Assembly (NCBI GenBank): GCA_964413025.1 | Contig: CAYPRG010000001.1 | Location: forward strand, 464-64,463 | Direction of reading: 5' to 3' | Origin: an uncultured Planctomycetales bacterium | GTDB taxonomy: Bacteria > Omnitrophota > Gorgyraeia > Gygaellales > Profunditerraquicolaceae | Length of the DNA: 64,000 nucleotides | Part shown: positions 7,101-32,500 of the stretch, piece after piece | Layout of the letters: each line of letters begins with the position of its first letter | How positions within the stretch are numbered: the first letter of the stretch is position 1 | Made by a program: the position numbers and the translations under genes | Notes under the pieces: model-generated | What the model was told of the DNA's origin: nothing | The model's input: only the letters and a program-made list of their open reading frames with translations | Databases searched by the model: none

Positions 7101-10100
7101 TACACACTACAAGGCAATCGGTAATGGTTTTTATTTCTTCGGGGGCCTTTGTAGAACGCAAAGCCATAAATAATTCAAATTCTTCTTCTCTGCTTAAAAT
7201 ATAGCGGCCATTCATATAAATAAGATTGGCCAGTATCCTCCTGGCTAAACTTAAGCCGTCTTCCCGGATATTCTCTAAAAGGTTTGTTGCTAAATATTCT
7301 GCTTCTTTTACATCTTCTCTACCGCCTATAAAATGCTTTTCTTCGTGCTCAAACAGCTTTATTAAAAGGTTTTCTTGGTTTAATTGGGTAAATCTGGTTA
7401 TTAGATTTAAGGGAATAAAAATCGTGGAATTATAGGTGCAGGCGGCTAAAAATCTTTCATTATTCTCATACCAAAGTAAACCCGGAGGGCCCTTTGATTT
7501 AACATCTGAATCGGGAAGGACTAGATAAATATTATCTTTACTCAACCACTTCAATATCTGCGGAGTAAGGACTAGCTGTGCTTTCTTATCCTGCGGTAAA
7601 TCCTTATAGCGGAAAAGGCGGTTCTCTTTCCGGGCTTTAGAGATGACTTTCTTTGTTCTCTTCTGAGCTTTCTCATCCACCGCGCCCTCTTCGGTGTAAA
7701 TGCCTGAGCCACAGGCAGAAACAGAATCAGCCAGATAGTCATCTAACCTTAACGTTCCGATTAAAGAATGCCACTTGCCCATCGCGTATTTTACGCAACC
7801 GCTCTTTAGGATATCTTTACCTGTGGGATTATCCTGATAAATCTCACCAGCAAAGAAAGGCTTTTTGATTATGGAAGAGGTATCTTTGAAACATTCGACA
7901 ATCAATTCAAAACAGTAGAAATCTATACGATGCTGCAGGAGGTTATGGGCAAAGGCAACCCTACCCAGACCTGTCAGCCTGAATAAACTGCGCCATAGCA
8001 CACCCCAGCCAAATCCAACTATAGCTGGCCAGTCATATTTGCGGCCTATCAGATTTTCTGCGCGGCTACAAGCTGTCTGCATAGCATCCTTATATTCATC
8101 TGCATCCTTAAATGCCTCCTGCTTAAGACGCACCACCGTTAAGCTGGAATTTTTATTTTCTAAATAACCGATTTGTTTTAAATATTCGGCTAATCTTTGT
8201 TTAATCACGCCTCTACCCAAAGCATGGACAATCCATCTCTTGCCTATATTTAGAACTCCATGGTTAACCGGGCTCTGGGTTGAGATCCTGATTAAATTGC
8301 TAAAGCTAAAGAATCCGTCGCTCTTAAATAAAGAAATATCTCCTTTGTTCAGTTTTAAAGCAATATAAGCAACTTTTATTTCCTTAAGCAGCCTCAAAAC
8401 ATTTTGCACATGGCCATAGTTTATCTTGCCAATCTTTTTCTCCTTTATCTCTCTCAACTTCAAAATAAGCTCAAGTAATCTATCTTCTAAAACATCGCCG
8501 GGCTTCCTGTCTGAAAACCCAATCACAATAGCCTTGATTTGCTGCCTTAATACTTTAGCTGAGGCACCTTGTAACCCTCGGGAGAGATGATTGAAAAGAA
8601 AATCCACATCGCCCTGCTCAATCCGTCTCTTAACCTGTTCTATATTCGCCATACCGCCTTCTTTAAAGGGCACGGAGAGCTTAATATTATTCTGCCCAAG
8701 ACGAAATAAACCATATCCCCAGGCGGGGAGTGTAACTACCATTTTTTCTTGGTCGATAACAAACTGAACATCCTCCGAACAAAGTTTCGACGTAAGTTCG
8801 CCGTTTATTTTCTCAGGGACGTTCGGCTCTCCTTTATAATAATTAAAAATACTGTTAAAATTAAGGCTAAGGCGCACCGGATAAAGCGAATGATTGACAA
8901 GAACTACGGCGTCTTCCTTATCCAAGTGCCGCACAAAAGGCACAACCCCGGTATCTTCTATGCCGACTTCTTTTCCACAAAAATCTATTTTTTCTAAGAA
9001 AGCGCTAAAGAATCTTCCTTTACGAAAAACAGGATGGGACACGAATTTAATCAACTCAACAAGCGGCTTAACCACCATAGAATTGTCTTTTAAAACATCC
9101 GGGTATGAAAACTGATATATGCCCGCGTCTGGATTCTTCATCTCCATACGCGCTCCCTCAGGGATTCTCATGCCGAGAATCTGACGTAGAGGAATAAGTT
9201 TATGCCCGGGGATGGCATAGGTAACCACCGCCGCGCCCATAAGGCGCTCCATAGAGCCGAAAGCGTCTATTGCCGGAGGCTCATCGTGATCCTCAATAAA
9301 ATGAGTGCAGTGCCTTAAAAATTCTTCCTTATGCTCACCCATAAATAAATATCCCCTCAAAGATGCAATATTCCCTTCTCTAAGTAAATCATAAAGGTGC
9401 TTATCATAAGGAAGCATTCCGCATTTCTGCAGCGTATCATGCGTTCCGTAATCGTAAGTTTCGGCAGGCATCAGCATTTTCGGATACTCTCTGCGGGCTT
9501 CCTCCCAGAATTCATTAGGCATCGTTTTCTGGAACTCTTCCCAGCTTACGCCCAAAGGAGCAATCCAGGTCTTCCAAACATGCTCCCTTAACCCCAAATG
9601 TGCCAAGTCCGCCCTGAATCCACCGTTACAAGTTAGATAGGCGATTTTTCTCATAACTTTTTTTATCATAAATCTACGGGCTCTCTCATCAAAATAATTT
9701 ACCTGAGCAAGATTTATCATAGACGGATCTTGCTCAAAGGGAGCGTTTTCCCGGGCGTGCATAAAGATAAGATCGGATCCGTTATGCCGCGAGAATGAAC
9801 GGCGATCACCTTCCATAAAAACTTTTAACTGCTCATCGCAAAGCCCTCGTGACCAATTAGGAAAATATTTTCGCACTAACTGAACAAACCGATTGTAATC
9901 TCCGCTGATCACCAGGCCGGGGGCTTTCTTAAGCAACGGCGAATCAGCGGCGATATGGTTAGTCACAAAATCAACAATCACCCTCATGCCCTTGGATTTC
10001 AAATTTTTGGCTACTGCCCGGAAATTACCATCATTGCCGGCAATCTTCGGATTTATGCGGTATCTATATACATCGTAACCGGAAGGTATTCTTTCCAGGG

Positions 10101-13100
10101 TCTCATTGTGTTGCTTGCTCCAATTTTGCATGAGTTTTTCTGAAAGCTTGCTCTCCTGCCATACCGCTTTCATCCATACAACACCGATACCCAACTCAGA
10201 AAGCCATTTCCAGAATCCCGCGGGCACCTTATTTATAATCCCGTAAGTGTCGCTTAAAGCGCGACCGTCAATTTCGGTGATTATCTGCGTAGATTCATCA
10301 GCCGGCCTGCGTAATTCACTGCTCAGGATAGTTATGGTAGATATTCTTTTCAGCTCGCGGATATAATTTTCATCAATCTCCACGATATCTTTTAATTCCT
10401 CGACGCCGGAAAGGAATACTTCTAATTCTTTTCTGTGGTCTCTATAATAAATATAAGCCTTGTGGCAAGCGCGCTTATGCGCTTCTTCTGGGGTGCAATG
10501 CAATTCTTCTAACTCTACTGATTCATGGAGTTTAAGATCGGGGAGTATTTTTTGCAGGCGGGGATCTTTAAGCAGCCGATGGATAACAAATACCAGAATA
10601 TCTTCAAATCTTTTGATTTCAAAAAGTTTTCCATTGCTGTCGCCAATAAGCTCAAACCGGGTTTTTACCCGCGGAGGGGCATGGACTAAAATACCTTCCA
10701 GCAACTTAGATATTGCCGGATCCGGCTCTTCTTTTTCCGAAAGCACCTCTGGTTTTTTGATTTCTTTTTTCGCTTTGCCATAGTAACTGCGGAGGCTAAG
10801 AGAGATGTTTCGCCCAGAATCAAAAACCGCCTCTTCTTTATCTATCCCGACATAAATAGGGTGGTATACTTTCGTGTGGAACGGTATCTGTTTCCTCATC
10901 TTATATTCTAACAATTCATCCCTTGTTGCCGAACTTGCGTCTTTGCGGAATATCTCCCACACACACTCGTGAGCATATTCTTCAAGCTCGCCGTTTTTGG
11001 TATTAAATATAAAACTCCTGGGAAGCGTACCCTGATATCGCGAATCATGAAGCAAAGTTTCTTTTATAAAGTCATCCTCTAAATTAAAATTATCGGTCAG
11101 CCATATATGTATAACTTCTTCTTTACCGGGCTTGGTTTTTATTGCCGCGAACATCTCATATATCAAGGTAAAAAGGTCAAAATTATTATTAATGTGGGCA
11201 GCCGCCGCCTCTTTGGTGGCAGGATTGTACATCAATATGCCTCTGCAGGTAGCAATACCGTAACTGGCTAATTTATAATTCTCATCATAAGCATTAGTCA
11301 CCGCCCATTCTCCCTCAATCGCTACCGCGGTATTATCAAAAGGCCTGATCTCTACGTCAAATTCCCTGCGGTCGACCCCGGGATATACCCAGAAAGTGCA
11401 AGCGTACCCCCAAGGAAGACAGTCTGTTTTTCTCCTCCAAAAAATATTTGTGCTATTGAGAAGGTCAGCTATCTTCTCTGTTAACCTGCTGGAAAAATCT
11501 TCTTCTTTTACAAGAAGCCATATCCTGTTCTTGTCCTTCCGGACGACCTCTAACCCGTTCGACGCCGCCAATGTTGGTAAAATAAACTGCCATTCTTTTT
11601 CTGAAACAGACATCTCAATATTTGCTTTTAATTCTGATCTGCCTTTCTTGATGGTTAATAAGCTGCCTATCATTAACCCGGCGGGAAATAAGGTAGGCGA
11701 GTGATTATAGAACAAGACAACCGCGGCCAAGAAAGCTAAGCATAAAAAGATAATCAAGGGGGAGAATGCCTGGCCGGAACGGTTGCCCAATGAAGCGCTC
11801 CTACGCACCAGAGCCTGTTCCATATTCTGCCTTATTTGCGGTTCGATCTTCGCATAGTCAAGGAAAGAGAAATCCGGTTGCCTGTCTTTCAAGTAAAGGC
11901 CGTGTATCTTCGAAGAATCTACCGCCGTCTGGATCATTGCTTCTGATATATAATCCGGGTCGTCTTTATATTCAAAAAGCTCAATTCCGACTTCAGCAAG
12001 GCGCCTTTTGATTTCTTCTTTTGGTACGGCCCTTAATCCTCCCTGATGGTTTATGCAGATATTCATTACGAATTGCGTATTCTTGACAAAATATTCAAAG
12101 AGAGCGCGCTTACCTAAGATTTCCTGCGGCCGGCGGGCTATCCATAAAGCCGCGGTCCTTAATGTTTTTAAACGCAGATAAACGCTACTGATACTACGCT
12201 CCATTATCTCTCCACAATTCATGCGGTATAATTCAACAGAGCCATAGAGCACCTTGCATCTATCGATATCCCTGTCGCATACAGTATTAAAACGGGATAT
12301 CCGCGGGAATATATACGCGGGTATAACATTTAAGGCCACTTCCTTTCCTTCTCTGCCCTGCACAAAAACCCTGCCATCTTTAAATGTTAAAGCCACCCCC
12401 TTCAATACTTTATATGCCGCATCTAAATCTTTTACTACCACCCAATTATCGAAGTCCGCGAATTCATTCTTCTCGCGGGCTGCCGAACCGTATAAGACCA
12501 CTGCTTTTAAATTATCCCCCAATCTTCGCTTAAGCCAATTTATATACCCATAACGCTCCTGTTCCCCCTGGGTAAGACAGGCATTCACAACGTATGTCTC
12601 TTCAGAAACGCAAGCCATAGGCAGAAGCTCAAGATACTTGATCATCCTCTTTTTTATCTCAATGAGCAGGCTCGTAGGATCATCCCTTGAGAAACGATAA
12701 GGCATAAAGGAGGCGTTTTCTCTACGTAAGAGCCCCAGAGCGATAAGCATCGCGGTTATTCTGTTATACACGTATATTTTATTGAGGAAGGTTTTATATA
12801 CGCCCCTGTTCTGGACAATATAGGAATCCATAGTGGCGATCCTCTGCGAGATCTCGGTCTGCAGCTGCAGTATTGCGCGCAATATTTTTTTTCTATAAAA
12901 TATGCCGTTGATGCCGGTCAGCGCGGATAATTTTTCTCTTCCAATATTCTGTTGAAGCTTATTTACTACTGAAGGTAAATATACCGCGAAGTTCCTGATT
13001 TCATCCACAGTCCAGGGTAACGGCAGGGTATCTTCCGGGGTTGTCTTAAGAAGGCCCTTTAGATATGAAGCGGTGGGAGAACCTTTTATAATAATCGTCC

Positions 13101-16100: not shown

Positions 16101-19100
16101 CTGGCTTTCCTTTTACCTCCAGGGCAACTATGCCAATATTCCTCTCATTCAGGAATTGTTTATATGCCCTCTGCAGTTCCAGTATCGGCAACCCGGTAAA
16201 ATATCCTGCGTAGATTAAGCCGGCAATGACCTGTTCTGATTCTCTCTTTATCCTGATGATAGATTCATCTATGTAATTTTTTTCCTTATAACGCCTGTCT
16301 TCATAGGCTCTCTCGCGAGGCGTAATCTTTATTTTCTTTTCTCCCCACAACAAATACATCGCCCTGCTTCTCTCAACTGCCTTTCTCAAAGTGGACTCAG
16401 GCATCCCTGGCCGCTTCATAAATAATTCATGTATTCCATGAGCTATATCCGCCGGCAGAATATGCGCTAACAACGGCTTTACCTTAACAATGCGCCTGAA
16501 TATTTTTCCGTGGCCATTAGTCCCGTTTATGGCCGCCAAAACATCTTCTTTCTTTATCTCTTTGTTTACTTCTTCAAACAGCTTCTCTATTTTCTCGCGG
16601 GGTATATCAAACTCTACCGTGCTCACTCTGTCGCCCAAATCTATGTTGTATATATGCTGGCCCCAACGCCGCATATGTGAATCTGCATCGTAAGACTGAT
16701 TAGCCAGCTCAATTGACCTCAGGAATATATTCACCACCGGGACAAAACGGCTGAGAAGCATCACCGGATTTACAACCAATGATTTAAATAACCAGTTCTC
16801 ATTAATAGCAACTAGCGCCTTCTTTATCACTTTGAATATGGTGCCATTCATTGAAGTAGGGTTTGTTTCCTCGCTTAGAAAAACGGCTACAACGGAATGA
16901 TTCTTATCCTGGGGAAAATTCTCCTGCTCCAGTAAGTAAATGGGGAAATAACTCTTAGGATGCGCTCCGCCGTCAATCAACCGCCATATCTTATATTCTC
17001 CCTTGTATTTACCTTCCCAAACCACAGGATTAAAAATAATTGGCAGGGACATAGTCGCCCTGATGGCAGTGCTTAAGAGCATATCCGGGCAGTTTTCTGC
17101 ATTCAACTCAAGCAGCTTTCCGGAAGTATGATCTACGGCCGTAACCGTAAGGCTGATAGGGTAACCTGCTTCTTGGAGTTCTCCGAGGGTAGGGATATGG
17201 CTAAATCTATCTTTTATTTTATTTTCTATCCATTCCAGGGCTTTTTCGCCTTTATATATACCTCCCTGGGAAAGCAAATTCCAGACGTTATCAAGGAACC
17301 CTTTCGGCGCGTCCATAAAGGTAGAAATGTTCATACTCAACATTTCTTCTTTTGCCGTTTCCACATCATAACCAAGCAAGACAAACAAACCAAAAATACC
17401 ACCTGCCGAGGTTCCGCCGATTTTATTGATGTAAAAACCCTTACCCGGGCCAAAAAGATTTCCCAACATGCTTAAAAAAGAAGGATAAGCTATACCCTTG
17501 ACTCCGCCTCCCTTAGCCACGCAGTAGGCAAGCGGCCTTTTTCCATCCCTGGATTTATTGATTCTCTGGATTAACTCCTTAATTCTTTCTTTTTTCCATT
17601 TTTTTAATTCGTTTTCAATATATTCGGTGAATTCTTTGGCGGTAGAGTGGAGCGGTTGAAGATTCGCGGAAGCAAGAATTTTTTGAAGCAGGATTAGTAA
17701 TTTTTCCGGAGGGGCATGGCTTTGTAAATACGGCAGATATTGGCTTTTGAGTATTTCCGCCGCGCTTCTATCTGTCTTTAAAAGCCCGCTTAATATCTTC
17801 AGGCACCTATCATAACTATTCCTATTCAACCACTCCAGGAATACCGCTTCTGAAATAACTCCATCCTCCCTGTCCGGATTAACTTTTTTTAAAACACTGT
17901 ACGCCTGCAAAACTTCATCCGGAATACTAACCCCTACAATAAAACCCTTAATTCTGTAAGCAATCAACTTCTCTATCTCTTCTAAACTTAATTTAATAAT
18001 TAGATTTAATAACTCCGGGCTTATTTCGCGTAGCTCTGGCATAGTCGCAGCATAACTGACGCGCTTTACTTCCCAATCTCTATACTCCGGCTCGCTAAAT
18101 ATCTTATCAAGGGTAGCCCTGGCTCTTTTTTGAAATATAGGGCAATGCATAAATATAATAGTCCTGACATTCTCTGGCCCAAAACCATTTTCCCTTAGTA
18201 TTTTTATGCTATTACGGATATTCTCTTCTGTGTTGGTAGATTTATCCTCCACTAAGATTGCGTTTTCAGGGACGCCGTTTTTAATCAGGCTGTCTTTACA
18301 GGATTCTGCCTCGGATATTGTTCCTTCCTTTGTTGCTATTCCCACTCCCCCGGAAACAACTATCATTTTTACCAGCCCCTCTTGATAGATTCCGGCGGCT
18401 TCTTCAGCAATACGCGGCGAATCAAGGCTGCCGGGGATTAATAATACATCCGCCTTTTCTCGCGGCAGTTTTTCTCTCTCAGTAAGAAAAGAAACTATAT
18501 ATCTAAGCGCCTTTTCTTCGCGGGCTTCTTTTTTAAAATCAGCTATGCCTGTGATTAACCCGTGCCAGATACAATATACGCTGAATATGAGCATAGGGAA
18601 GACGAAGAAGACTACTGTCAGGAATAAACAAATATCTTCTCCGCTGATAGAAGATAAACCGCCAAAAGGCATAGCCCAACAAAGAGTTGTTCTTAGTATA
18701 GCCGTTAGAAAAACAACTAAAAATACAATTGCCAGGCCGCGGGTTTTGGAAGCGTTTTCAATAAACCCAAAATTTTTTGCTTGCGCTTTTATTGCTTCTT
18801 CTTCGGTGGGATATTTTTCGTGAATCCTGATCTGTGAAATAATCCAACTTATCTGGTAAAAAGGATAATCCAGGTTATTAAGGATTTGCTCGAGTTCTTC
18901 TTTCTTCGCTTTACTAAAGGTTGTATTTGTAGCAATTTCAAATTTATTTACTAAATTTTTAGCTTTTGAAGTTAATGCCGGTATTAATCTCTCTATCTCT
19001 TTTCTTAATTCCTTTTTCTCTATGGCGGTAAATTCTCTGGATTCACGCAGCAGGCTAAGTTTTTTTAATCTGGGGGGGCCGGTAATTTTGCCTGATTTAA

Positions 19101-20559
19101 TCAGATATACCAGGGCTATCCTGAAGACCGCCTGCCATAATTTCAAAAATGCCTGGCCGATTACGGGTATATTTTTATATCTTAAATATGCCTTAAATAT
19201 TCCCAGGGCAGCCATGGGATGCGTGCCTTTGCGGATTTTTGCCAAGATACTTCTGAATTTACCGGCTTTCGGCTGGCTGTTGGCTTTATCCTTCCGGGCT
19301 TCCTTTTGCGGCTGGGGTGGCTGCTGATCCATGAAAAGGATATTTACTTCGGTATCCTTATCAAAGAAAACCAGTTGATTAGTATTAAAAACAAGGTCCA
19401 ACTCTTGATTTAACTCAAGCTTACTCTCGCTTCCAAGTAAAGCTACAAAAATATGTTTATCATTTTTAAAATGGACTATCTTTTTATCGCCCATATTCTC
19501 TATTATATCCACTTTTCCTTTTACTATATTAACGAGTGAAGTATATTTTGACTCCACAAACATTTTATCCTGGATTTCGTGCGGCCTTATGCCCAAGATA
19601 ATTTCTTTATCTTTATAGGGCGCCAGATAGCTGGCTATTTTATCATCGGTTTTTACCTGGAAGCTCTCGCCGTCAAAATAATAACCATCTTCCCTCTGGA
19701 TAATTTTTCCTTCAAAGAAATTCATTTCCGGAGAGCCGATAAACCCGGCGACAAATTTGTTAACCGGATTTTCAAAAACAACCATTGGCTCACCGATTTG
19801 CTGGATAGCCCCATCTTTCATTACCATTATCCGCGAAGCCATAGTCATAGCTTCTATTTGGTCATGGGTGACATAAATAAAAGTGGTCCCTTTGCCTAAA
19901 CGCTTATGCAGCTTGTTAAGTTCGGTGCGCATCTGGACACGCATCTTAGCGTCTAAGTTACTCAAGGGTTCGTCAAAGAGAAAAACCAGCGGCTGACGCA
20001 CAATGGTGCGCCCCACAGCCACACGCTGCCTCTCCCCTCCGGAGAGCTCGCGCGGCCTGCGGGCAAGCTTATCTACAATAGATAAAATTTGGGCTGCCTC
20101 TGTAACCTTAACTTTGATTATCTCTTTTTTGACTCTTCTTAACTTTAACCCGAAGGCCATATTCTCAAAAACAGTCATATGCGGATATAGAGCGTAATTT
20201 TGAAAAACCATAGCAATGTTACGGTCTTTTGACGGCACATCATTTACTCGTTTATCCCCTATATATACATCTCCTTCGCTTATCTCTTCAAGGCCGGCAA
20301 TCATCCTTAAGGTGGTAGACTTACCGCATCCTGACGGGCCGACTAAAATGAAGAATTCCCCTTCATCCACCCCAAAGTCTATAGATTTGACCGCATAATT
20401 CTTCGGCTCTTTCTTATCTCTTCCGGGATAAATTTTACTTAGCTTAGCAACTCTTACGCTTTTGCCTGAGCTTGAAGTGCTTGTTTTATTTGAATCCACC
20501 GGCAAAAAGTTTGTTTGGCTGGCCTTCTTTGCTTGATGAGCCCTTATCGCCTTGTAAAT
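1..20559 (-). CDS. Giant ORF A, 3' end beyond window position 1. The open frame of >=6,850 codons begins immediately after TAG 20560-20562, and its start codon is unclear.
   Basis: Same minus frame as ORF B. 1-2760 and 19321-20559 were checked contiguously and about 60 other lines sampled, with no in-frame stop. The first in-frame ATG (+20302-20304) lies inside the ABC domain, after its Walker A motif, so it cannot be the native start. Candidate non-ATG starts are GTG at +20497-20499 and TTG at +20503-20505, the latter with a weak AAGAAGG upstream. Confidence 0.7.
   Translation of the reverse strand, partial: [6853 protein letters not shown]
1183..1250 (-). other. Predicted transmembrane segment.
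   Basis: Hydrophobic stretch [22 protein letters not shown] translated from +1183-1250. Confidence 0.5.
4100..6450 (-). repeat. Tandem intragenic protein repeats of about 180 aa (540-nt period), with at least 3 clear copies.
   Basis: The copies are [29 protein letters not shown] (about +4570-4680), [34 protein letters not shown] (about +5110-5220) and [34 protein letters not shown] (about +5650-5760). A weaker copy lies near +6130-6180. Confidence 0.65.
6450..7450 (-). other. Sigma-70 (RpoD-like) domain covering regions 2-4, embedded in the giant ORF.
   Basis: +6901-7020 translates [40 protein letters not shown] (region 2.2-2.4). +6421-6540 translates [30 protein letters not shown] (region 4.2 HTH). 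Both are in the giant frame. Confidence 0.8.
8750..10300 (-). other. GH13 alpha-amylase-family catalytic domain.
   Basis: +9961-10020 translates [18 protein letters not shown] (GH13 region I DxVxNH). +9601-9660 translates [14 protein letters not shown] (region II GFRxDxA, nucleophile region). Upstream is [11 protein letters not shown]. Confidence 0.75.
11660..11760 (-). other. Predicted transmembrane segment.
   Basis: +11701-11760 translates [20 protein letters not shown]. Confidence 0.5.
12300..12650 (-). other. Minimal (Pol-beta-type) nucleotidyltransferase-fold motif.
   Basis: +12421-12540 translates [40 protein letters not shown], matching the hG[GS]x9-13DxD pattern. Confidence 0.5.
13300..13750 (-). 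other. Class I SAM-dependent methyltransferase-like domain.
   Basis: +13561-13620 translates [20 protein letters not shown], the motif I glycine-rich loop. Confidence 0.55.
13800..14200 (-). other. Transmembrane helix cluster.
   Basis: +13861-13920 translates [20 protein letters not shown]; the flanking segments are hydrophobic. Confidence 0.45.
16500..17650 (-). other. Patatin-like phospholipase domain.
   Basis: +17461-17520 translates [20 protein letters not shown] (the GGGxKG oxyanion motif). +17401-17460 translates [21 protein letters not shown] (the GxSxG nucleophile elbow). Confidence 0.7.
17950..18500 (-). other. DUF218 (YdcF/ElyC/SanA-like) domain.
   Basis: +18181-18240 translates [20 protein letters not shown], the conserved STNTxEN motif of DUF218. 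Confidence 0.55.
18550..18760 (-). other. Transmembrane segment(s) between the ABC and DUF218 domains.
   Basis: Hydrophobic translation across +18550-18760. Read by eye only, less carefully verified. Confidence 0.4.
19330..20450 (-). other. MalK/UgpC-type sugar ABC-transporter ATP-binding domain, at the N-terminus of ORF A.
   Basis: Contiguously translated [39 protein letters not shown] (Walker A, +20281-20400). Then [63 protein letters not shown] (signature, Walker B and H-loop, +19861-20060). Then [29 protein letters not shown] (MalK-type C-terminal regulatory domain). Confidence 0.85.
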
Positions 20560-20562
20560 CCT
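20560..20562 (-). other. The single in-frame TAG stop codon separating the two giant open frames.
   Basis: + strand 'cta' at 20560-20562, read in the coding frame as ...[71 protein letters not shown]... Confidence 0.85.
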
Positions 20563-23500
20563 ATAGCCCAAATAAATCAATAACCCGGCGACTAAAACCA
20601 CTTTTACTAAAACTGGGATGCTGCCCAAAACCGGGAATCCGGCGAATAAGAACCCGTTAGCCAGAGAAGAGGGACTTTCACAATCCCGCATTTTATTATA
20701 CTGGTCGTTTAGAGAAGCTTTGTTCGCGCGATAGAAATCAAGAGAAGGCAGCTCTCTCTCATCATTAAGTATCCTCGCCTTCTTTGTATTCGCACGCATG
20801 AAATCATCGATTAAATCAATCCTTAGCTTACCTTGCGAATCTACAGGTAAGAAACGCTCATCAAGCAATGAACGCTTTCCCGAGGCAATATCTTCCCAAT
20901 GTTTCTTCCAATATTCATTACCGCCATTATCATCTCCCAGCAATCTTTCCTGCTTCTGTTTTTCTACTCCGGGATAAGGGAACTTTCTTTTTGCAATCCA
21001 GCTAAGGATTGATTTCTTATCTTTCCTTAATTGTTCCCAGGCAGTTTGCTCTTCCTGCCACTCTTTGCCGACATTAACAAGTTCCTCCCTGATTGTTTTC
21101 CATGTCGTCTTCATATTCCTTGCGATATAAGCACCCTGCCTATCGCCAGTTTCGGGAGTAGGATCATAGGTATAGAAGTAACGCGCTGTTGCATGCAAGA
21201 ATAGGCCATGGATTCCGGCGACTTCCCTGAATTGCTTGGCATTGAATAATTCCGGATATTTGGCATGCAGCCTGACTATCTCAACCCATTCTTTTTGGGC
21301 GTAAATGCCGGCTTTTTCCGCTTCCATAACCGCTTTTTCAAAATCAGGATAAATTCCGCTGGTGGCGATGTAATTGTCAATTACCTGGTGGACCAGATTT
21401 TCATTTTCGGGATAATAATAGTGGAGGATTTCTTCGGCGAGAGTAAGCACTGCCAGTAACGGAGGCGCACGGCTCTGAATGATATTATGTATTTTAATCA
21501 GCATGGCAGAAGCAACGGCTAATCTTTCCAGATCTCCTGTTTCTTCCAGGAAGAGTTGCGGGCGGCTTAATATGCGCGCCAGCAGGTCATATACCCTGGA
21601 ATCGTTCTTTTTGATCAGGAGCAATTCTTTAAGCGCCCGCTTAAGATATCTATCAAGCTTTCGTGGCAGGTTTCCGCTCTGTAAGCCTAAGGTATTTTTG
21701 TAACCATTAGCCTCTAAAGCAACCTCATACTTATTTGCCATATTTATTAAATCCTTCTGGGCTTTTACAAAACAACGCGAGGTATGGAAATTGCTCCTCC
21801 AGATACGGTAATCAAGCGACCCAAAAATATTATCCATCGCCTCAATCGTCTTCAGAAATTCCAAATCAATCTGACCGGAATAAATCTGATCGCAGAGTTT
21901 ATTGAACCGGAATATGTGGTCTACCGTACGCTTATTTGAATACGAAGGCGCGGTGCCGGTAGTCATTAAAAACGCCCAGTCCGAACTCTGAGCAAGGAAA
22001 AGCTCTCTTCCCGTCTGGTTCAATGCCCGCAGGGTAATCTCATCAGGGTTATTAAAACGATTAGCCAGCTCAATCATCTTCTGCGCGGCTTTTAACAGAT
22101 GCCTGTATATCCAGGCATTCCCGCCATTAAGCCAAACCGAGAAATCCCCTTCATTTCCCCAGGAGGAGAGCGCAGGTTCAGAGCGCTGAAGGGTCTTGTT
22201 TTCATCAAGATATTCAGAGATAGTCACCGGCCGCACAGTCCGTTGGTCAAAATGGAACTTGCGCATGACTAGATTGATAAAATCCTGCCCCTCGTACCAC
22301 CAATGGCCGAAAAGTTCAGCGTCGTAAGCGCAGGTAATCAAAGGTTTACTGAAATGCCATGTTTGACATCCTTCTTTTACCCTCTTAAAATGCCCATCCA
22401 GGAATTCCGCCTGTTTGCCTCTGGCCCAGACAAAATTACCAGAGTGGCAATCTACCTTGCTAGCTGCCCATCCCGGATGATAATATGCTTTCTGGTTAAG
22501 CGGCACATTTTTTCCGGTAATACGGAAATATTTAAGCCCAATCGCGTGCGGCCCTACATTTCTGAAATAATTATTGAGGCATCCGCTATCTCCATCATAG
22601 CCTAAATCGCGGTGAAATTCCTTGTAATCGGGATCTCCGGGGTAACCTCCGTCACGCGACCAGATACACTCTCTAGTCTCAGGGTCACGGCTGACAGCCA
22701 CGCATCCCGCGGGAGTAATCACGGGAGCATAGGCGGCGTAACCGGAATCAAGATGGCGGCCGAATACAGGTTTGGGATTAGCGTAGCTCAAAGTATGCAT
22801 ATCGGTCAAAAAGAAATTTATCCCCGCTTCTCTTAAGAAAACATCGAGACCAGGGTAATATGCGCATTCAGGCAACCATATACCTCTGGGAGAACATCCG
22901 AAAACTTCTTTATACTGGCTGACGGCTTGAGCCAGTTGCGCCCGTACCGCCTCAGGAAATGAATTCATTAAAGGTAAAAATCCGTGGGTAGCTGCGCAAG
23001 TGATAATCTCAATAAAACCTAAATCCTGGAAACGGCGGTAAGCCCGGGTAAAGTCCTTTTCATAACGCAGGAAAATTTCCTTGCTTTGCTTAAACTGCTC
23101 AAGATGAATCTGCACTGTATGCTCCCAGGGAGACTTATTGCGCCTGGCATTCTCGTATTCACATTCAGCGAGTTTAATCAACTCGTTTATATGCCTTAAG
23201 GTGCGCTCCTGCAGGAGCGGGTCGCGCATCATGCTTAAAAGCGGCGGGCTCAAAGAAACCGTCATCCGGAAATCCACGCCATCTTTCAGCCAAGATTCAA
23301 AATTAGCGATCTCTCTAGCGTAGACCTCAATCACAGCCTCAAAATACCACCATTCTTCAAGAAAATTATCGTATTCAGGGTGGCGCACAAAAGGAAGATG
23401 ATGATGAAGGACTAACGCCAAGTTAGCTTTTTCTGCGTAGTTATCAAGACGCGCATCGTGAAGGCCACGATAATGTTTAACCGGCGGGTCAGGGGTAAAA

Positions 23501-26500
23501 CCGCATTCCGTATTGGTAAAAGTTGGGCTTCTCTCAACTTCATGGTTACGAGCAGTCATAATGCGGTTAGACGTAGCCAGAGTTTCGTATTGACATTCTA
23601 TATAAACGCCCAGCTGGGCAATATATTCCTTCTCGGCGGAAAGATTATTGAACCAGAATTCCCGGCTGGTATTTCCCGTAATCCCTTGTTCCTGATAGCC
23701 ATTATGGTTAAACCCATTAAACGCGCCCTGGCCGCTGACATCATAGAGACGGATGGCCAAGCGGGCGTTCTGTCGGTAATAATCTACTTCGGGCATATCC
23801 CAGAAAACGTAAGCATTAGAGGTATTCCCCTGGCCAAGTAAATGAATCCCCAGCTTATTATAAAAAGTAGGGATATCTCCCCAGGTTGATTCAGGATTAA
23901 TTTTTTCTTCGCTTTCTCCGATATAATCTTCATCAGAGAGATTCTTTATGGCGAGCTCCAAAGAAGAAATCCCTGCAGGAGTAAATACGCGTGAATAACC
24001 GGCACCCTTTCTAGCGTGCCACTTGAAAGGCTCGATTTCTCCCAGATAAACCGAGCTAAAATGCCCTCTCTCAAGTAAAAATTCCATTTCCAGGCTTTCT
24101 ATCCTCTCGGATACCGCGTTCGCCCTTATACTAGAATGATGAATTGTATCTCTTAGTTTTTCGCAGATAATCCCTAATGCCTTCTTCAAAGGTATCTGGT
24201 TGCTTTTCAGGTCAGCCGAAGTTATCCCGCCCTCAATAAATAAATCTATAATTTTTTCAATTGGTTTTTCAGATGCTTCGGCAATTGCCTTAACTAAACA
24301 ATTCTGTTTTAGGGCATCGCTTATTTTATTTTCTTGCTTTTTGGATTCTTCCGGCGAATAAGCTTTGCCCGGAGCAGGAGAAGTATAAACAATGCCTGGC
24401 GCAGGCTTAATCCCGTTATTATAAAAAGCACTGAGCGCCTCTTTTTCTTCTGTTACTATCCGCGAAACCGCTTTCTTCAAAGATAAAAATAAAGACTGGC
24501 CCGCGGCTTTAGCATATACACCTTCGGATTTTGGCTTACCGTGTTCCAAGATCAACCTTAAAACTTCCACCACCCCTAAATCTTCTAATTCTTTATTAGC
24601 GGCTTTAGGGTCGCGCGCGAACTCAAAAATCCTGAATAACTGCGTTTGATTGGCCAAAGATACACAACTTGGCAGGCCTTTACCTGTCTTTAGCTCCGAC
24701 AAGACATCCTGCATCAGGGAATATGTCTCAGGCTCTATATCTAATCCAAATTGATGCTTTAAACGTAATAACCTCAGTATATCGCCCAGCAAAAAGTTAA
24801 CCCCTTCTCCCACTATCCGGACTTTATTATCCAGGAGGTCTTCCAGTGCCTGGCGGTAATGCCCATATAAATTACCGTTACAATCCACGGACATCTGCAA
24901 CAAAGCAGCGCCTGAGTGAGTGGCAAAACTTTCCTTTGTCGCTGAATCAACTACATAATTTTTTAATATGATTTCTTTTCCGGGAGCATATTCCGTTTTT
25001 ATCAGGCCGGCGAATTGGACTTTGAGCCCTTGGAAAATTGCTTCTCCGTATGGTTTTCTGAAGGTATCCTTATCGGCTCCCAGCGCCAGCGCTAGTTTTT
25101 CCAACGACTGCATGGCGAAGGAATACACTCTTTCATTGGCAGGATATTTGAGGCTTCTGAAATTATTCCTTTCTTCCTCGGTGAGTTCTACTTTTGCGGC
25201 TATATCTATATCGCCCGATTCATTACTGAAAAATATATCCCTGACCGCTCCGCCCATCACTAAAATATCTTCCAGGCCCTTTTGCTTCAGGAAATTTATG
25301 AAGTCTTTTATATTCTTATCGTTTATATCGCTTATGTCTATCCTGCCCAGTGCCAGGCCTTTTTGGGCTAACGCACGGTCGCGCTTGACCACGACTTTTT
25401 TAGCCAGCCATTTCTTAAATGCTAATATAGTCAATACTCCTAAGCCGCAGATAATGGCAGGCAGGACGAAATGTTTAATTATGCCTAATGATTCCGGAGT
25501 TATGAATGCGAAATATGTACCCATGGCGTAGATATTAGCGGTGCTGCCGGCTTCCATCTTAGCAATGGCTTCTTTTAATTCTATATATTCAGGGTTATCC
25601 TGGATGATTGTTCCGCCGGCATGGGGAAGGTTGTCTATTTCGACGGTAAGGGGAGTGGCGCTTAAGAGTTCTCTTAAGGCCTCAAGCACGCTTTTATCGT
25701 TGAATCTTTCTAAAGCTTCGGCCGCGGCAAAAGCAATGTAATGCTCTTTATCTTTTGATAATTTAATTAAACAGGGTATTGCTTTTTTGCTGCCTATCCT
25801 GTCGAGCGTTTTGGCAGCGAAATGACGGATAAGGGCAAATTTATCTTTTGATACATTAACCACGGCTTTGACCGCGGGTGTTCCGATTTTGACTAACCCT
25901 TCTAAATCCTGCCTGGCAATTAAGAAAATTATTTTTTCTCCCTCTGTCTTCGCTATCCAGCCTAATTGGCCTAACGCCCAAGCAGCTTCTAAGCGGACAT
26001 CGCTATCTTCATCTTTCAATTTTTCTTTAAGATACGCTATTGCCCAGACATTATGGATTTGGCCTAAAGCCCTTGCCGCGGCTTTACGCACAGAAGAATC
26101 TTTGTCTTCTAATAATTCGGTTAAGATATCTGCTGCTTGGCTGTCGCCGATATTACCCAATATTTCAGCTCCTGCTTCCCGGAAATCGGCGTCCGCATCT
26201 AAACTTCTTAATTCTCTAGCCAATAAAATTTCTGCCGGCAGGCCAACCTGGACTAAAGCATCTATTAAATCTTCACGCAAATGGCCTCTTTTATTTTTTA
26301 ACAATAACTTCACCAGATAATCAGCTGCTTCTTCTCCGCCAAGCTGCCCCAGAGTTTCAATAGCGGCAATTGTTTCACGGATATACCAATCCTCTGCTTT
26401 TAATTCTCTGATAATATGGGTAGCTGAGCGTTTATCACCAAGCCGGCCCAAACTTTTAACAGCTTGCTCGCGCTTTACCCAATCCTGGTCTTCCATAGCC

Positions 26501-29500
26501 TTAATATGATATGTAGACTCAAACATCATCCGGTTATCCGCGGAATCAATCAGGCGTAAGAATAACCCCCGGCCTCCTTCTTTCTGCCTGACTTCAATCA
26601 GGGCGCGATAGGAAGCTTCGGCAAAGTAATCACGCACCATATGAGAAGGAATATTATGCAGATAACCTTTGGCAAAACCGATTGCCGGACGGACTGGTAA
26701 AGCCTTTTCAGGGACAAATGAAATAATAAACGGCAGATACTTCTGAGGCTGAGCTAACACCTGTTGATAGCTGATATGCTGGTCGCCTGTGCCCTGCATC
26801 ACCCATTCAATCCCAACACTGATCAGATAGTCCCTTAAGCTGTAGAATTTATCGCCTTCCAGGTATATAAAAGGAACCAGCTTACGGTTGTTTTTCTGGG
26901 CAAATTCAGTGGCCTTACCAACCAAATAAATAAAATCTTCAAGGTTAGCGATTTTGGCAGAAGAATTTAATTCAGGGATGTTAGTCTGCAGGTATCCTGC
27001 TCTGGCAAAGTTTTTAATCTCCTCAAAAGCCTTTTCAATTGCCCCCGGATTTTGCGCTTCTTCTTTCTGCAGCTTTTCCAATTTTTCTTCCAGCAGGCCT
27101 TTACCTAACTCAACATAAGGCTGGCGCACAAAAAGATTTTCCTGGACAATTTTCGTCGCCGGATTATCCAGGTTATTCAAATCAACATCCGATGCTGAAA
27201 ATTTAGCTTTCAGCAGGGCCCTGGCGATTAAGCGATTACCTATAGTATTAGTCATTCCGTAAAAAACAGTAAAGAGTTCGGCAAATGTATTGGCTAAATC
27301 CTGCTTATCCAGCTTTTTGAAATCAGGAATGCTTATTTTAAAATTTTTGGCTGATTTACCTAATTCAAGGCCTAATAAATTGATGATAAGCTTATTAGGT
27401 TTATTTTCATAATGCACTTTTTGCCCAGTCCAATAACTTTCTTTAACCGCGATAAGGTTGACAAAACCTTCCTGCCAGATGCTTTCATTAAAGTTTTGCT
27501 CAATGGACTTTCCAAACCAGAAAAGGTAATCCGGGACTAAAAGGCAGATATCGGTTATCTCCGCATCCAGGATCATATTCCCTAAGATATTGGCAGTGTG
27601 AGCTTCCGAACGCACTTTCTTTATGTATTCATGACGAAGATCCCAATATTCTTCGGCATCAAGGTCATGGTAAGCCAGGAATGTCATCATATGCAAGTCG
27701 CCGGTCCAGCGTCCGCCTACATTATCAAACATTGCCCCAAACCCGAGAGCATCTTCTCCGAGCTCTTTATCCAGCCCGGAATTCCGGATAAAAGCAGAAA
27801 GCCTGCTGTCTGCCGGCCTATCAGTAGTTTCGAAGAACATATTTCCTAAGACCTTAGCAAATATCTTTTTAACCTGGCCATAATTGACATCCAAACCCGC
27901 GGCCACAGCATTATTAGCTATGAGAGATAGATTAAATCCTTTAAATAATTCCTGGCCTTTACGTTCTTTACCGCTGATAAAATTAATCTGGTGCAATGCG
28001 GCCAAAACGATATCGGCGAACTTCGCGCCATCAATGCCTGATTTGGCGGAGATGCGTTTTAGAAGGACATAGAAAATCTCAACAAACACTATCATTGTTT
28101 CATCGGTAGAGCCTGATTTTGAACTTGGGATGACCGCAATCTGATCCCAATCCGCGTTATTACGCGCCAAGGCCTCTGCCATCGCAGTTTCAAAATTTTT
28201 ACCCAGTTCATATTCACCGGCTATTGCCGCTGTACGCAGGTCGATTACCTCAAAACCGCTGGCAATGCCCTGGAATGGAGTATGCTGGCCGCCGATGCCG
28301 GTCTTAATAACGTATTTGATGGGCTTTCCTATTCTTTCTGCCCGCAGCCGGAAGAACTTTTTCATATTGCTGACACCTTCCAGGAATATTACTTTCCCTT
28401 CTTCGGTAAAATAACCCTGGCTTCCTTTTAAGGCATGCGAACCATCGACTGCCGCGCCTTCAGGAACACCATACCCATCCTTTTTATATCCACCCCTAAG
28501 GAAACGCGCTGCCATTTCTATATCCCCTTTGGCATCCAAAGGAGTAGTAAGCTTTTCAAAAATTACCCGGCTTTCTTTCTTTTCTTTCGCCATCTTTACA
28601 TCCATTGCTTCTTCCACGTTTACCTCCGCATTTTGATGAGAAGATATCCCTAATAAAGCCATGCCTATTTTACCTAAAAATTCCTGCCTTGCAATATCTG
28701 TTACTTCGGTATAAAGACGAGCCACGTTTTCTGTCCCGGAAAGCCGGATACACAACCAATCTCCGCTTTCAAAAACTACTTTTAGTCCATCGGATGTGAT
28801 TACTACCGCTATCTTTTGCGCCATTCCCAAAGATTGCAATTTCTTAGCTAAAGACATCTCTTGGAAGCTGACTTTTGCGAGTTCTTCCCGCGCCTGCTTG
28901 ATAAGGCTAGAGGCTTTATCTTTTAACTCCTGGGTCAATATTATGTTATCCCGGCGATAGAAAAACTTCCTGCCGATAGTATTCTCGATTTCCTCTTTAT
29001 AGCTGGTCAGGCTCTTATTTTTATCCGCGGCCATCCAAAGGCACATTAAGCCAATAACAATACCGTCATCCCATGACTGCATAAATGGCCCTACCCCCAC
29101 ATGCGCGGATTCTTCGCCGGCGACAATAAACTTTCTATTATTCTTTATAACTTCTTCAACCGACCACTTGAACCCGACTTTTGTCTCTATCAGAGACAAC
29201 CCTAAATAATCGCAGACCGCGTTAACAAAATTAGAGGTAGCTACTGTTTTTCCTACCGCTCCGCGGAAACCTTTCTCATGGAGGAAATAAGCCAGCATGG
29301 CGATAATCTCATTAGCAGACATCTCTTTTCCGCCAAAATCTATTACTCCGAACCTGTCCGCGTCCCCATCAGCAGCAATACCCAAAGTAGTATTGTTTTT
29401 GTTCACCTCGGTTAACAAATCTACGATACTTGCTTTTTCCGTAGGATTAGGCGCGCCGTTTACCTGGTAAAAATAAGGGTCTTTATTACAGTAATGGATT

Positions 29501-32500
29501 ATGCTAAATATTCTATTTGTTTCCATTTCTATCTGGGCGTATATAGCCGCGAAATACCTCACTGCCGCGCCCTGCATAGGGTCTAAAACTAATTTAAAAT
29601 CAGGATTACGCTTTATATACGAAACAATTGTATCCCAGGCGCCGATTTTTTTAAGCGTAGGAATAATATACTTCTCCACATATATATCTATTGCATCCTT
29701 AAAGGTCAATTCTTTGATTAAGCCCGAACTCTTAGCCACAGCATAATCAATATAGCGGTATACATTGCTCTGGTTAGCGCAATCAGAAATTAGTTTTGTA
29801 GCCTCTTCATCCGCCGCTCCGCCGTGGTAAGGCGAAAATTTAAACCCGCCATCGGTATATTTATTATGAGAAGCCGTAAGGTTAATCACCCCGCTGATTC
29901 CTTTGTCTGAATTTGCCAGATACCCCAACACCGGGCTGGGCGCGGGTTCATTGATGATTATTCTTACCGGAATATCATTTGCCGCCAGGATAGAGGCGAT
30001 ATTCTTGGCGAAATCAGGATTCCCTCTTCTAGCATCATAACCGATTAATATCGCGCCTCTACCGATACGGCGTCTATAATATTCTGCTACACCTTGAGCC
30101 GCGCGCCGGACATTAGCCGAAATAAAATCCTGCCCTATGGTTCCGCGCCAACCAGAAGTGCCAAAACTTATCTTTGTGCCGGTAGAATACAGGTTCACGG
30201 TAACCGGCTGAATAGCTACAAAACCCAACAACTCATCTTCTAATTCAAGGTTCTTTTCGTGAAGCTGGCCCATGGCCGCGCCTAATTCATGGATTATGGT
30301 TAAAGCCAATTCAAGGGTGTTATAAAGGATTGATTGGTCAATATAGAGAAGCTTCTCATGGATTGCGCCGAAGAATAAATCATACGGCCCTGCCCTTAAA
30401 TAACCTTCTTCGGGCAATAATTCATTTAATTTCATCAGCCGCTTTTCGGCTTCTTCGGATTTATATTTAAGTTTCAGGAAATCTGCGGCGAATTCTTTTG
30501 CCCGCAGGACAAAGGGCAAATCTTTTATTCTGGATTCTTTGTAGCCTTTTTTGGCTATTTCCTGGGCAACTTCTTCTGCTGTTATCTCTAAGCCAGACTT
30601 GGAGCGGCCAAAATCAACCGCCTCTATTACTGAATACCCGTATTTTTTAAAAACCGCGGTAATTGATGAAAAATCTGTCATCATGATCACCCCTGATCTG
30701 GATATCTCATCAATAATCGACCTGCGAATAAAAGCGTATCCGGAATCTCTAAATTGGTACATGGCTAATTTTGGATTCCTCTCAAATTTTCCAAAAATGA
30801 GCTGCAGCAAGTCTTCAGGAAGCGTATCTACCATATTTAAAACTTGGGCGACCCTTCTTTCTCCTCCGCAACCATATACTTCCATAAATGTCACTAAAGC
30901 CGGGGGCGCAATTGAAAAATCCAAATTGAAATCTTGTACATAAGTATCAAAAAGCGCCGATGGCTCATGGGTTATACCTTTGGCAATATGGCTGATAAGT
31001 TCATGGTAGAGTATCTCTAACTGTTTTGATTTCGCGTAGCCCGGGAAGCTTGGATGGATAAAAACGGTGTTTTCCGGATAATCTTTACTTATGCGGAACC
31101 CAAGATTTACTGCCGCTACATTCCCCCCCATCTGTTCTAAAATCTTTCTATCAGTAGTAAAGATAAACGTGGCTTCTGGAGGTGCGCGTTCGGCGACTAT
31201 AGCCAAACGCTCTAGAATATGTTTTAATCTACCTTCGGTATCTTTCCAGAATTTCCTTGCCTGCGGCGCATCCAAAAGATATTCAACCTTGTTCAAACCC
31301 GTATTAACCCTGACTATATCCCTTTCTCCGAATAGCTCAATGAATACCTTCTGGATCGCGGAAGAAACAAGAATAGGATAAGTATTCGGCTTAGCGAATT
31401 CATCCCACTTCTTTTCCGACCAGATCTCCAAATGGTCAACATTGCCGACGAAAACAATCTTTCCGCCCTTTTCTAATCCCGCTTCATCAACCAATTCCGG
31501 ACAAATAACTATTCTTCTCTGCTTATCTAGGGTCACCGGGAAACTAAAAACACTAAGCTTAACTTTTTCTTCTTCCGCGAGCGCGTCTATCTTTTTGTTA
31601 TAAGAATCTACCGTGTATATAAGGATTTTTTGTACCAGGGGATTACAATACAAATAAAGCTCTGCTTTATCTCTAAAATTTCCGGCAAAGGCTGCGGGGA
31701 TAATTGCCCGGTTTTTATTATCTAAGGTCGACTTATAGTGTCCGGGGAAAGAAACCCGCTGCTCTTTTACTGTGCCAAAGAGCTTCACCCTGTTTCTGCC
31801 TTCGTTTTTGGCCTCATAGAGGGCTCTATCTACATTAGCTATCAGGGTCTCCATGGGCATATCCTTCTTAAAACTGGCTACCCCTATACTTACGGTGCAA
31901 TTCAAGATTATTTCTTTTCCTTCATTGTTCTTCACCTTGAATTGATTTCCTTCGACTATCTTCCTGATATCCTCGGCAACGGTATAGTAAGCCAAATCCT
32001 CTTCGGTGTGAGGCAAAATAACCGTGAATTCTTCGCCGCCGATCCTACAAGCAATATCAGGTCTTCTCACCCTTTTCTTTATCAGTTCTGATATTTCTTT
32101 GAGCATAGTATCGCCTGCCGGATGGCCATAGGTGTCATTTATTGATTTAAAATGGTCGATATCCAGCATCAACAAAGATAATGGGTGGTCTTCATGCCTC
32201 TGGGCATCTTCTATTTCATTAGATAAGGCTAAATCAAAATATCTGCGATTAAAAAGATTAGTTAAAACATCCACATAAGCCAAACTATCCAATTCATCAG
32301 CTATGGCCTCAAGAAACTCTATCTGTAACGAGGAGTTTTCCGGGCAAGACAGGCCTTTACGCGCCCCCGATTCATGCAAGACTGCTGACTTCAATTTACG
32401 GGCGTTATTAAAAATGGCTTCGTTAAGGTAATAAGTCCCCTCATGCGCCGCGATATAGAATTTCTCAAAATTCCCCACCCTTGCCGAAGCGGTATCGATT

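Follow-up and report, generated by a model that had tools for sequence, protein, structure and literature searches.

The window, that is, the whole 64,000-nucleotide stretch of DNA analysed here, is spanned on its minus strand by a single uninterrupted open reading frame (ORF), open at both window ends, and deep inside this frame lies a predicted ATP-binding cassette (ABC) ATPase of the type that serves sugar importers. A six-frame stop count found no TAA, TAG or TGA in the ORF frame over the 64,000 bases, compared with 1,949 and 1,662 stops in the other two minus frames; the stop-free frame is therefore not a product of chance. The ORF has at least 21,333 codons within the window, and no alternative genetic code needs to be invoked, as all three stop codons are absent from its frame. 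A plus-strand reading of the feature was rejected because only short ORFs were found on that strand (15–30 kb). Four antisense ORFs of at least 150 amino acids gave no Pfam match, and scans of the window for tRNAs, Rfam families and tandem repeats were all empty.

More than 30 distinct Pfam families were matched in the ORF at E ≤ 0.01, some of them under their curated cutoffs, including GT20, PFK, PGM, GH57, GH13, GNAT, NUDIX and HEAT. The giant protein consists of whole sugar- and glucan-metabolism enzymes, with disordered linkers, hydrophobic membrane anchors and HEAT repeats between them. A length of at least 10,000 amino acids, many Pfam families of which none dominates, sugar enzymes and HEAT scaffolds characterise the 'multi-enzyme metabolic cluster' class of Omnitrophota giants; all of these were found here, and from its sequence the window fits as part of one giant gene of this type, at least 64 kb long. 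Where the best matches of the ABC and PGM modules carried a source name, almost all were labelled Omnitrophota/Omnitrophica.

The ATPase module comprises a nucleotide-binding domain (NBD) and a C-terminal regulatory domain, and all seven ABC ATPase motifs were located in it in canonical order (Table 1). A hidden Markov model (HMM) of 120 free-standing homologues aligned through positions 4–366 of 367 to ORF residues 14515–14887, with a score of 554 bits. The first-pass annotation, made from the letters alone, had placed a MalK-type ATPase here; its position was correct within about 10 bases, but the module lies on the minus strand. That all motifs and the regulatory domain are contiguous, as it had also claimed, was borne out by motif mapping, the family HMM and the structural model described below. 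PF00005 (ABC_tran) scored 105.5 bits against a cutoff of 25. Of the two Pfam domains it had proposed to search for, ABC_tran was thus recovered, while TOBE_2 was not reported on the embedded copy at E ≤ 0.01; the regulatory domain was matched by OB_MalK alone (E = 1.8e-9).

At the level of full-length families, the NCBIfam UgpC subfamily model NF008653 aligned over positions 15–352 of 357 and scored 446 bits against a cutoff of 432. Its scope is the MalK/UgpC/MsmX-type ATPases that serve CUT1 sugar importers. The MalK equivalog NF008233 gave 373 bits, under its cutoff of 568. Among the modules tested, the ABC ATPase was the only one to exceed a full-length (equivalog or subfamily) NCBIfam cutoff; the RpoD, OtsA, PFK, PGM and branching-enzyme modules stayed far below theirs. 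In a phmmer search of the PDB the best matches were Clo1313_2554 of C. thermocellum (7x0q, 1e-117) and MsmX of B. subtilis (6yir, 9e-113), both 51–53% identical to the module, with MalK and SugC proteins of archaea and bacteria next; E. coli MalK was 47% identical across the NBD and a portion of the regulatory domain. An AlphaFold2 model computed with 30 homologues had a predicted local distance difference test score (pLDDT) of about 90 across the NBD and the regulatory domain, up to the domain end. Foldseek gave this model target TM-scores of 0.96 to Clo1313_2554, 0.91 to MsmX and 0.84–0.93 to MalK and SugC within whole transporters, and the superpositions on MsmX, MalK and SugC ran over 375 columns, including the regulatory domain. 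By sequence and modelled fold, the module is thus identified as a complete MalK/UgpC/MsmX-type (CUT1) ATPase, and not as MalK in the strict sense.

Within the window the module is preceded by 14,514 codons and trailed by 6,446. The first-pass annotation had a downstream giant frame begin with it; no boundary exists near 19300 or 20450, and the module is internal to the single ORF. It had further named a delimited malK gene of about 370 codons, with a stop near 19300, as the finding that would overturn its view, and we found no such stop, start or terminator. At the position equivalent to Met1 of the free-standing family, the DNA reads GGC AAA AGC GTA; there is no ATG, GTG or TTG, and the embedded module has Gly where the family has Met1. 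The nearest in-frame TTG or GTG codons lie 13–15 codons upstream of the module, without a ribosome-binding site. A Shine-Dalgarno (SD) core preceded 8.5% of the in-frame ATGs across the ORF; the corresponding share was 10% when every codon was counted (background) and 41% for genuine gene starts at related Omnitrophota loci. Compared with shuffled sequences, the surroundings of the module showed no enrichment of promoter-like or terminator-like sites. An internal translation start was rejected, given the missing start codon at the Met1 equivalent and the lack of SD enrichment, and so was a normal delimited malK gene, given that no in-frame stop, SD, promoter or terminator was found. The proposed fusion into a giant protein consequently stood, as did the in-frame succession of transmembrane (TM) helices, DUF218 and patatin after the ATPase, which was recovered by Pfam and a hydrophobicity scan.

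The embedding is the unusual part of the finding. The best 120 matches among 5.8 billion proteins were all free-standing, 350–375 amino acids long and in many cases labelled Omnitrophota/Omnitrophica; they were 58–62% identical to the embedded module and covered the module part of the query only. In an exhaustive HMMER search of 1.84 billion sequences, for which the query was the module with its flanks (1,150 amino acids), the best 150 cluster representatives had at most 849 amino acids and matched the ABC part only; any faint similarity confined to the linkers would have ranked lower than these 150. None of these 270 best database matches, all of 849 amino acids or less, was embedded. Nor was any of a sample of 80 MalK-type loci listed from GTDB genomes, which all had stop-to-stop frames of at most 512 codons (median 380). 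A query of 400 amino acids, covering the regulatory domain and the linker after it, had no relatives in either GTDB genomes or JGI metagenomes, and the downstream flank of 610 amino acids had no match among the 5.8 billion proteins. While an embedded PGM is common, an embedded MalK-type ATPase was not seen among the matches and loci examined. A CUT1 ATPase would be expected as a discrete polypeptide of about 350–400 amino acids with its own start and stop; the module departs from this.

In a neighbour-joining tree that included other phyla, the module adjoined a clade of all sampled free-standing ATPases of Omnitrophota, on a terminal branch 3.6 times longer than theirs. The free-standing relatives share a mean identity of 76% with one another, and the embedded module about 60% with them. 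The signature LSGGE, present in the embedded module, occurred in 92 of the 120 Omnitrophota relatives, against 6 of 150 representative sequences. Of the columns with at least 97% conservation across the 120 free-standing relatives (149 in all), the module keeps 128 (86%); six of the lost columns are in the NBD, where the changes are conservative, and most of the others in the regulatory domain. Relative to the family, divergence was 1.1-fold in RecA core I, 1.4-fold in the helical subdomain, 1.7-fold in core II and 1.8-fold in the regulatory domain, which is the fastest-diverging part (42% identity to the free-standing relatives, vs. 68% among them). E. coli MalK dimers are held together by this domain. 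The helical subdomain and the Q-loop are 72–82% identical to the free-standing relatives (helical subdomain 72%). The embedded copy also has two insertions, one of six residues in the N-terminal strand and one of two residues before the H-loop. Codon usage and GC content at third codon positions (GC3) of the module are at the ORF median; it is therefore not a recent foreign insert, and a recent foreign acquisition was rejected. These comparisons suggest that purifying selection is concentrated on the catalytic core, a pattern as would be expected for a working motor with an altered regulatory or dimer-contact surface. The module probably derives from the phylum's own orphan ATPase lineage, through a gene that was duplicated and then captured by fusion in frame.

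Pfam detected neither a permease (BPD_transp_1) nor a binding-protein domain in the long frame of the window, and with the family HMM no second NBD was detected in the window. A second Walker A (nt 42459) was considered as a degenerate NBD within the chain and rejected, as by eye it is a uridine-kinase/PRK-like P-loop; its PDB matches were weak and included the HlyB NBD at E = 0.008. Like an orphan NBD, the embedded module is thus unlinked to permease or binding-protein genes in the 64-kb window. The free-standing Omnitrophota ATPase lies within a conserved block, DUF1015-accD-malK-GGDEF-GGDEF-ROK-LptD (loci L001–L006, gene at 10001–11104), and in three lineages no permease or binding-protein gene was found within 10 kb on either side of it. 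Since the free-standing gene is itself away from permeases, the missing partner is characteristic of the family and does not set this locus apart. The first-pass annotation had rightly stated that the 64 kb hold no permease or binding-protein genes, the long frame having no such domain and the antisense ORFs being empty, but its view that this absence is unusual does not hold. An orphan, multitask arrangement is documented for MsmX (PMC7658222). A GGDEF domain is common to the free-standing malK block and the giant ORF, and ROK is among the recurrent domains of giant proteins (Nielsen & Lui, 2026; 10.64898/2026.06.07.730766).

Table 1. Features of the giant ORF in the order in which they are read on the minus strand. 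Positions are nucleotides of the window; KD, Kyte–Doolittle hydropathy.
Feature	Positions	Strand	Basis or remark
Single uninterrupted ORF, open at both window ends	1–63999	−	0 stops; Pfam modules all in frame
Internal signal-peptide-like segments	57223–57297, 56920–56994, 53797–53871, 37021–37095	−	
Uridine-kinase/PRK-like P-loop GASGSGKT, just upstream of phosphorylase region	41977–42489	−	Motifs by eye
Beta-1,3-glucan-phosphorylase-like region	~38500–41706	−	PDB phmmer, NCBIfam
GGDEF diguanylate cyclase (31789–32280), then MraZ-like domain	31390–32280 together	−	GGDEF 1e-46
PGM module	28696–30171	−	
DUF4912, preceding GH57 module	23533–23862	−	Pfam
GH57 1,4-alpha-glucan branching-enzyme-like domain (GH57 + BE_C), full-length	21799–23418	−	Pfam
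32-residue hydrophobic anchor immediately upstream of ATPase module	20557–20652	−	KD peak 2.2; one long helix in model
Linker of ~33 residues between anchor and module, predicted disordered	20458–20556	−	pLDDT <50, model residues 62–80
Complete MalK/UgpC/MsmX-type ABC ATPase (NBD + C-terminal regulatory domain), ORF residues 14515–14887	19339–20457	−	Family HMM, NCBIfam, PDB phmmer, Foldseek
A-loop Tyr of ATPase module (KIY)		−	
ABC_tran core: Walker A, Q-loop, signature, Walker B	19963–20388	−	Pfam PF00005 4e-30
Walker A GPSGCGKS	20317–20340	−	
Q-loop of ATPase module	20179–20208	−	
Signature LSGGERQRV	20020–20046	−	
Walker B LVFLFDE	19969–19989	−	
D-loop SNLD, just downstream of ABC_tran core	19951–19962	−	
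H-loop YVTHDQ, just downstream of ABC_tran core	19858–19875	−	
C-terminal regulatory (OB/TOBE-like) domain of ATPase module	19339–19749	−	OB_MalK 19579–19737
TM helix pair ~200 residues downstream of module	18562–18726	−	KD peaks 2.4, 2.8
DUF218, downstream of ATPase	18100–18414	−	Pfam 4e-15
Patatin-like phospholipase, downstream of ATPase	16963–17514	−	Pfam 2e-23
Sigma-70 module, regions 2, 3 and 4, RpoD-like	6454–7113	−	252 bits vs. RpoD equivalog cutoff 555

Hydrophobic segments stand on both sides of the module, separated from it by linkers; the one after the module, before the TM pair, is predicted disordered as well (pLDDT below 50). The anchor upstream has two Lys or Arg residues on its N side and four on its C side, that is, a positive C-terminal flank. 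Along the whole ORF, 36 hydrophobic peaks were counted by a crude method (KD ≥ 1.6 over 19 residues). The anchors at residues 12845 (nt ~25400–25470) and 14450 (the one next to the module) flank the DUF4912-GH57 segment. In both, the positive charges lie C-terminal to the hydrophobic stretch, which predicts a cytoplasmic C-side. Two simple serial spans cannot both have that orientation; possible reasons are that one of them forms a re-entrant hairpin or that the scan overlooked a TM helix. TM parity places the sigma-70 module across the membrane from the ABC module, which is senseless for a sigma factor. A topology derived from TM parity and the positive-inside rule was set aside as internally inconsistent.

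The other modules of the giant chain, annotated by searching the full frame against Pfam, NCBIfam and the PDB, are mostly full-length enzymes. They comprise UDPGP-like, GNAT (twice), HEAT blocks, a phosphorylase-like module, GT20 (OtsA-like), NUDIX and PFK; a uridine-kinase-like P-loop, a GH161/GH149-like beta-1,3-glucan phosphorylase, GGDEF, MraZ and PGM; DUF4912, a GH57 branching enzyme, the ABC ATPase, DUF218 and patatin; and a DHH/DHHA2 pyrophosphatase-like module, a methyltransferase, a GH13 amylase, sigma-70 (regions 2–4) and a weak GH2 match. The neighbours of the ATPase process alpha- and beta-glucans and sugar phosphates. NCBIfam branching-enzyme models aligned to the GH57 module over positions 3–531 of 553, under their cutoffs. 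In the beta-1,3-glucan-phosphorylase-like region no Pfam family was matched at E ≤ 0.01; phmmer against the PDB gave a GH161-type protein at 3e-57 and a 'cellobiose phosphorylase' chain at 1.5e-56, and NCBIfam a GH149 model.

The best matches of the PGM module (54–64% identity; P0284, P0286, P0288 and P0293) include ORFs that span whole Omnitrophica contigs of 2–3 kb and cover more of the query flank than free-standing PGMs do; these are probably fragments of related giant genes. Proteins of about 1,018 amino acids were also matched, one of them named phosphomannomutase/glucose-6-phosphate isomerase by JGI. Lipoprotein-signal-like segments with the lipoboxes LVGC, LSGC and LNGC, and one Sec-type-like segment (AFA-AA), lie inside the ORF. 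Their position thousands of codons into the frame suggests that genes of separate secreted proteins were fused in frame. PilZ genes have been described downstream of giant genes (West-Roberts et al., 2023; 10.1101/2023.11.21.568195), and their products could read a signal such as the GGDEF module would make.

The best explanation overall, to which we give about an even chance, is that the module still works as an importer motor while being tethered to a polypeptide that is anchored in the membrane and metabolises sugars. The module would then face the cytoplasm, with the upstream anchor (some 33 residues away) and the downstream TM pair fixing it to the membrane. Its NBD partner would be either the free-standing paralogue or the corresponding module of another copy of the giant chain. 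Docking onto CUT1-type sugar permeases encoded elsewhere would involve the Q-loop and the helical subdomain of the module, so that the imported oligosaccharide could be delivered beside the phosphorylase, mutase, kinase, glycolytic and glucan-remodelling modules of the same chain. The giant chain would stay uncleaved. A more specific form of this proposal is tentative and rather doubtful: an ABC sugar importer may be physically joined to a membrane-tethered one-chain metabolon through the embedded NBD, which would form a heterodimer with the free-standing paralogue.

Several observations speak against a tethered importer motor. Neither a permease, a binding protein nor a second NBD is present in the window, so the partner is hypothetical, and the regulatory domain is the most diverged part of the module. 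One of the four residues of the Firmicutes MsmX multitask signature is identical, and the analysis of hydrophobicity and positive-inside charges gives an inconsistent topology. The flanking linkers had no detectable relatives in the collections searched that would show conservation of the fusion. Moreover, giant proteins of Omnitrophota have been proposed to be cut by peptidases embedded in them (West-Roberts et al., 2023). This would be compatible with a polyprotein, in which the chain is cleaved post-translationally, a free ATPase of about 370 amino acids is released to work as the phylum's orphan MalK-type enzyme does, and the fusion merely co-ordinates expression. The module is indeed a whole enzyme between predicted disordered linkers, the other modules are full-length enzymes as well, and the internal lipoprotein- and Sec-type signal-like segments suggest once-separate proteins. 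However, Pfam identified neither a C39 nor an S8 peptidase domain in the window, where a weak sub-threshold C92 match was the only one, no repeated cleavage motif was recognised, with no search aimed at one, and the hydrophobic anchors beside the module would be purposeless if the ATPase were released. We consider a polyprotein unlikely.

Alternatively, the module could have been co-opted for a role outside transport, as an ATP-dependent dimerisation or regulatory switch that, for example, clamps two chains together or, by way of its diverged regulatory domain, senses ATP or sugar and so controls the enzymes beside it. The lack of a permease in 64 kb, the long terminal branch, the low retention of Firmicutes multitask residues in the region that contacts the transmembrane domains, and a regulatory domain and N-terminal strand that diverge 1.7–1.8 times faster than the family would all agree with this. 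The helical subdomain and the Q-loop, which are known solely for permease coupling, are nevertheless still close to those of the relatives, the EAA-loop positions (A85, K106, V114, V149 and V154) are retained, and the free-standing family is also without nearby permeases; such a switch is quite improbable in our view. The same long branch, and an identity of about 60% to relatives that share 76%, could also be read as signs of a decaying relic, a passenger of the gene fusion without present function. Yet the seven motifs are intact, the great majority of family-invariant columns are kept with conservative changes in the NBD, the catalytic core is the least diverged part, the fold was modelled at high confidence and, alone among the modules tested, this one passes a curated family cutoff, which makes decay very unlikely. 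A separate malK gene, or an artefact of assembly or sequencing that merged genes, is effectively refuted. While the GTG and TTG codons upstream of the module could be taken as internal starts, they have no SD, and Gly at Met1, the lack of SD enrichment and the absence of promoter or terminator signals contradict a gene of its own; random errors would break frames and not open 21,333 codons without a stop, and every sampled MalK-type locus was bounded by stops.

ABC importers are modular, and their ATPase is either a separate subunit or part of one chain with its own permease. A new arrangement, not seen among the matches and loci examined, is an intact ATPase of importer type deep inside an otherwise metabolic protein of more than 21,000 residues. 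If the embedded NBD indeed joins an importer to a one-chain metabolon, the motor and the phosphorylase, mutase, kinase and glucan-remodelling enzymes that use the imported sugar would be hard-wired on one polypeptide for substrate channelling, and it would be the first importer-type NBD to act as an internal domain of a non-transporter protein. Should channelling occur, uptake and metabolism would be coupled to an extreme degree in ultra-small, host-dependent bacteria; should it not, the locus is still a clear example of whole housekeeping genes captured into giant ORFs. As the best-preserved module, the ATPase offers an assayable handle on giant Omnitrophota proteins through the existing MsmX and MalK assays, and the module junctions give defined peptides by which a single chain can be told from a cleaved polyprotein.

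Giant genes of Omnitrophota have been described with proposed proteolytic processing and embedded peptidases, and with binding proteins and binding-protein-dependent transporters downstream of most of them (West-Roberts et al., 2023). The 'multi-enzyme metabolic cluster' class was defined with a sugar-metabolism module, HEAT scaffolds and a TM-anchored topology (Nielsen & Lui, 2026). As in that class, the ORF studied here exceeds 10,000 amino acids and combines many Pfam families with a sugar set (PGM, GNAT, NUDIX, methyltransferase) and HEAT; its TM helices are scattered at roughly the reported density, and it has no nucleotide tandem repeats. No ABC-transporter ATPase or MalK-type domain inside a giant is mentioned in the main texts of either paper or in one supplement. 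The general phenomenon of giant multi-enzyme proteins is thus already published and the embedded importer NBD is the new element. Since earlier work on Omnitrophota had already described giants that carry sugar-metabolism modules, the novelty is narrower than the first-pass annotation implied and is limited to the embedding.

The free-standing Omnitrophota ATPase (367 amino acids; P0096 and P0006, annotated as 'sn-glycerol-3-phosphate ABC transporter ATP-binding protein UgpC' or 'multiple sugar transport system ATP-binding protein') belongs to the same subfamily as the embedded module, with LSGGERQRV, all motifs and 58–62% identity. The embedded copy differs in having no start or stop of its own, in its flanking anchors and linkers and in a markedly diverged regulatory domain. 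E. coli MalK (target TM-score 0.84–0.87) has in common with the module the catalytic motifs and most of the EAA-loop contact positions. A85, K106, V114, V149 and V154 of E. coli MalK are EAA-loop contact or suppressor sites, and the module residues aligned with them are retained. While E. coli malK adjoins malEFG and encodes a separate polypeptide, the module has no malEFG-like neighbours and scores under the MalK equivalog cutoff.

The closest solved structures, MsmX (6yir) and Clo1313_2554 (7x0q), have the same plan of NBD and regulatory domain and are likewise encoded away from permeases, but they are discrete soluble subunits of about 365 amino acids, which the embedded module is not. For MsmX a putative multitask signature of D77, R104, E110 and K154 (MsmX numbering) was derived from Firmicutes only (PMC7658222). 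These positions read N, R, I and L in the module in the HMMER alignment to 6yir, that is, one of four is identical.

MalK-type ATPases of 620–850 amino acids also occur in the representative library (P0251, P0122, P0129, P0219 and P0236), and in several MalK-type representatives C-terminal extensions of 250–480 amino acids had no Pfam match; the short fusions may include gene-calling fusions. As in the giant ORF, the ATPase is joined to another domain in such fusions (P0251, MalK-GH88, 720 amino acids; P0122 and P0129, with an additional 250–480 amino acids). In these proteins of at most 849 amino acids, however, the ATPase is N-terminal, has its own start and has no flanking anchor helices, whereas the embedded module is internal.

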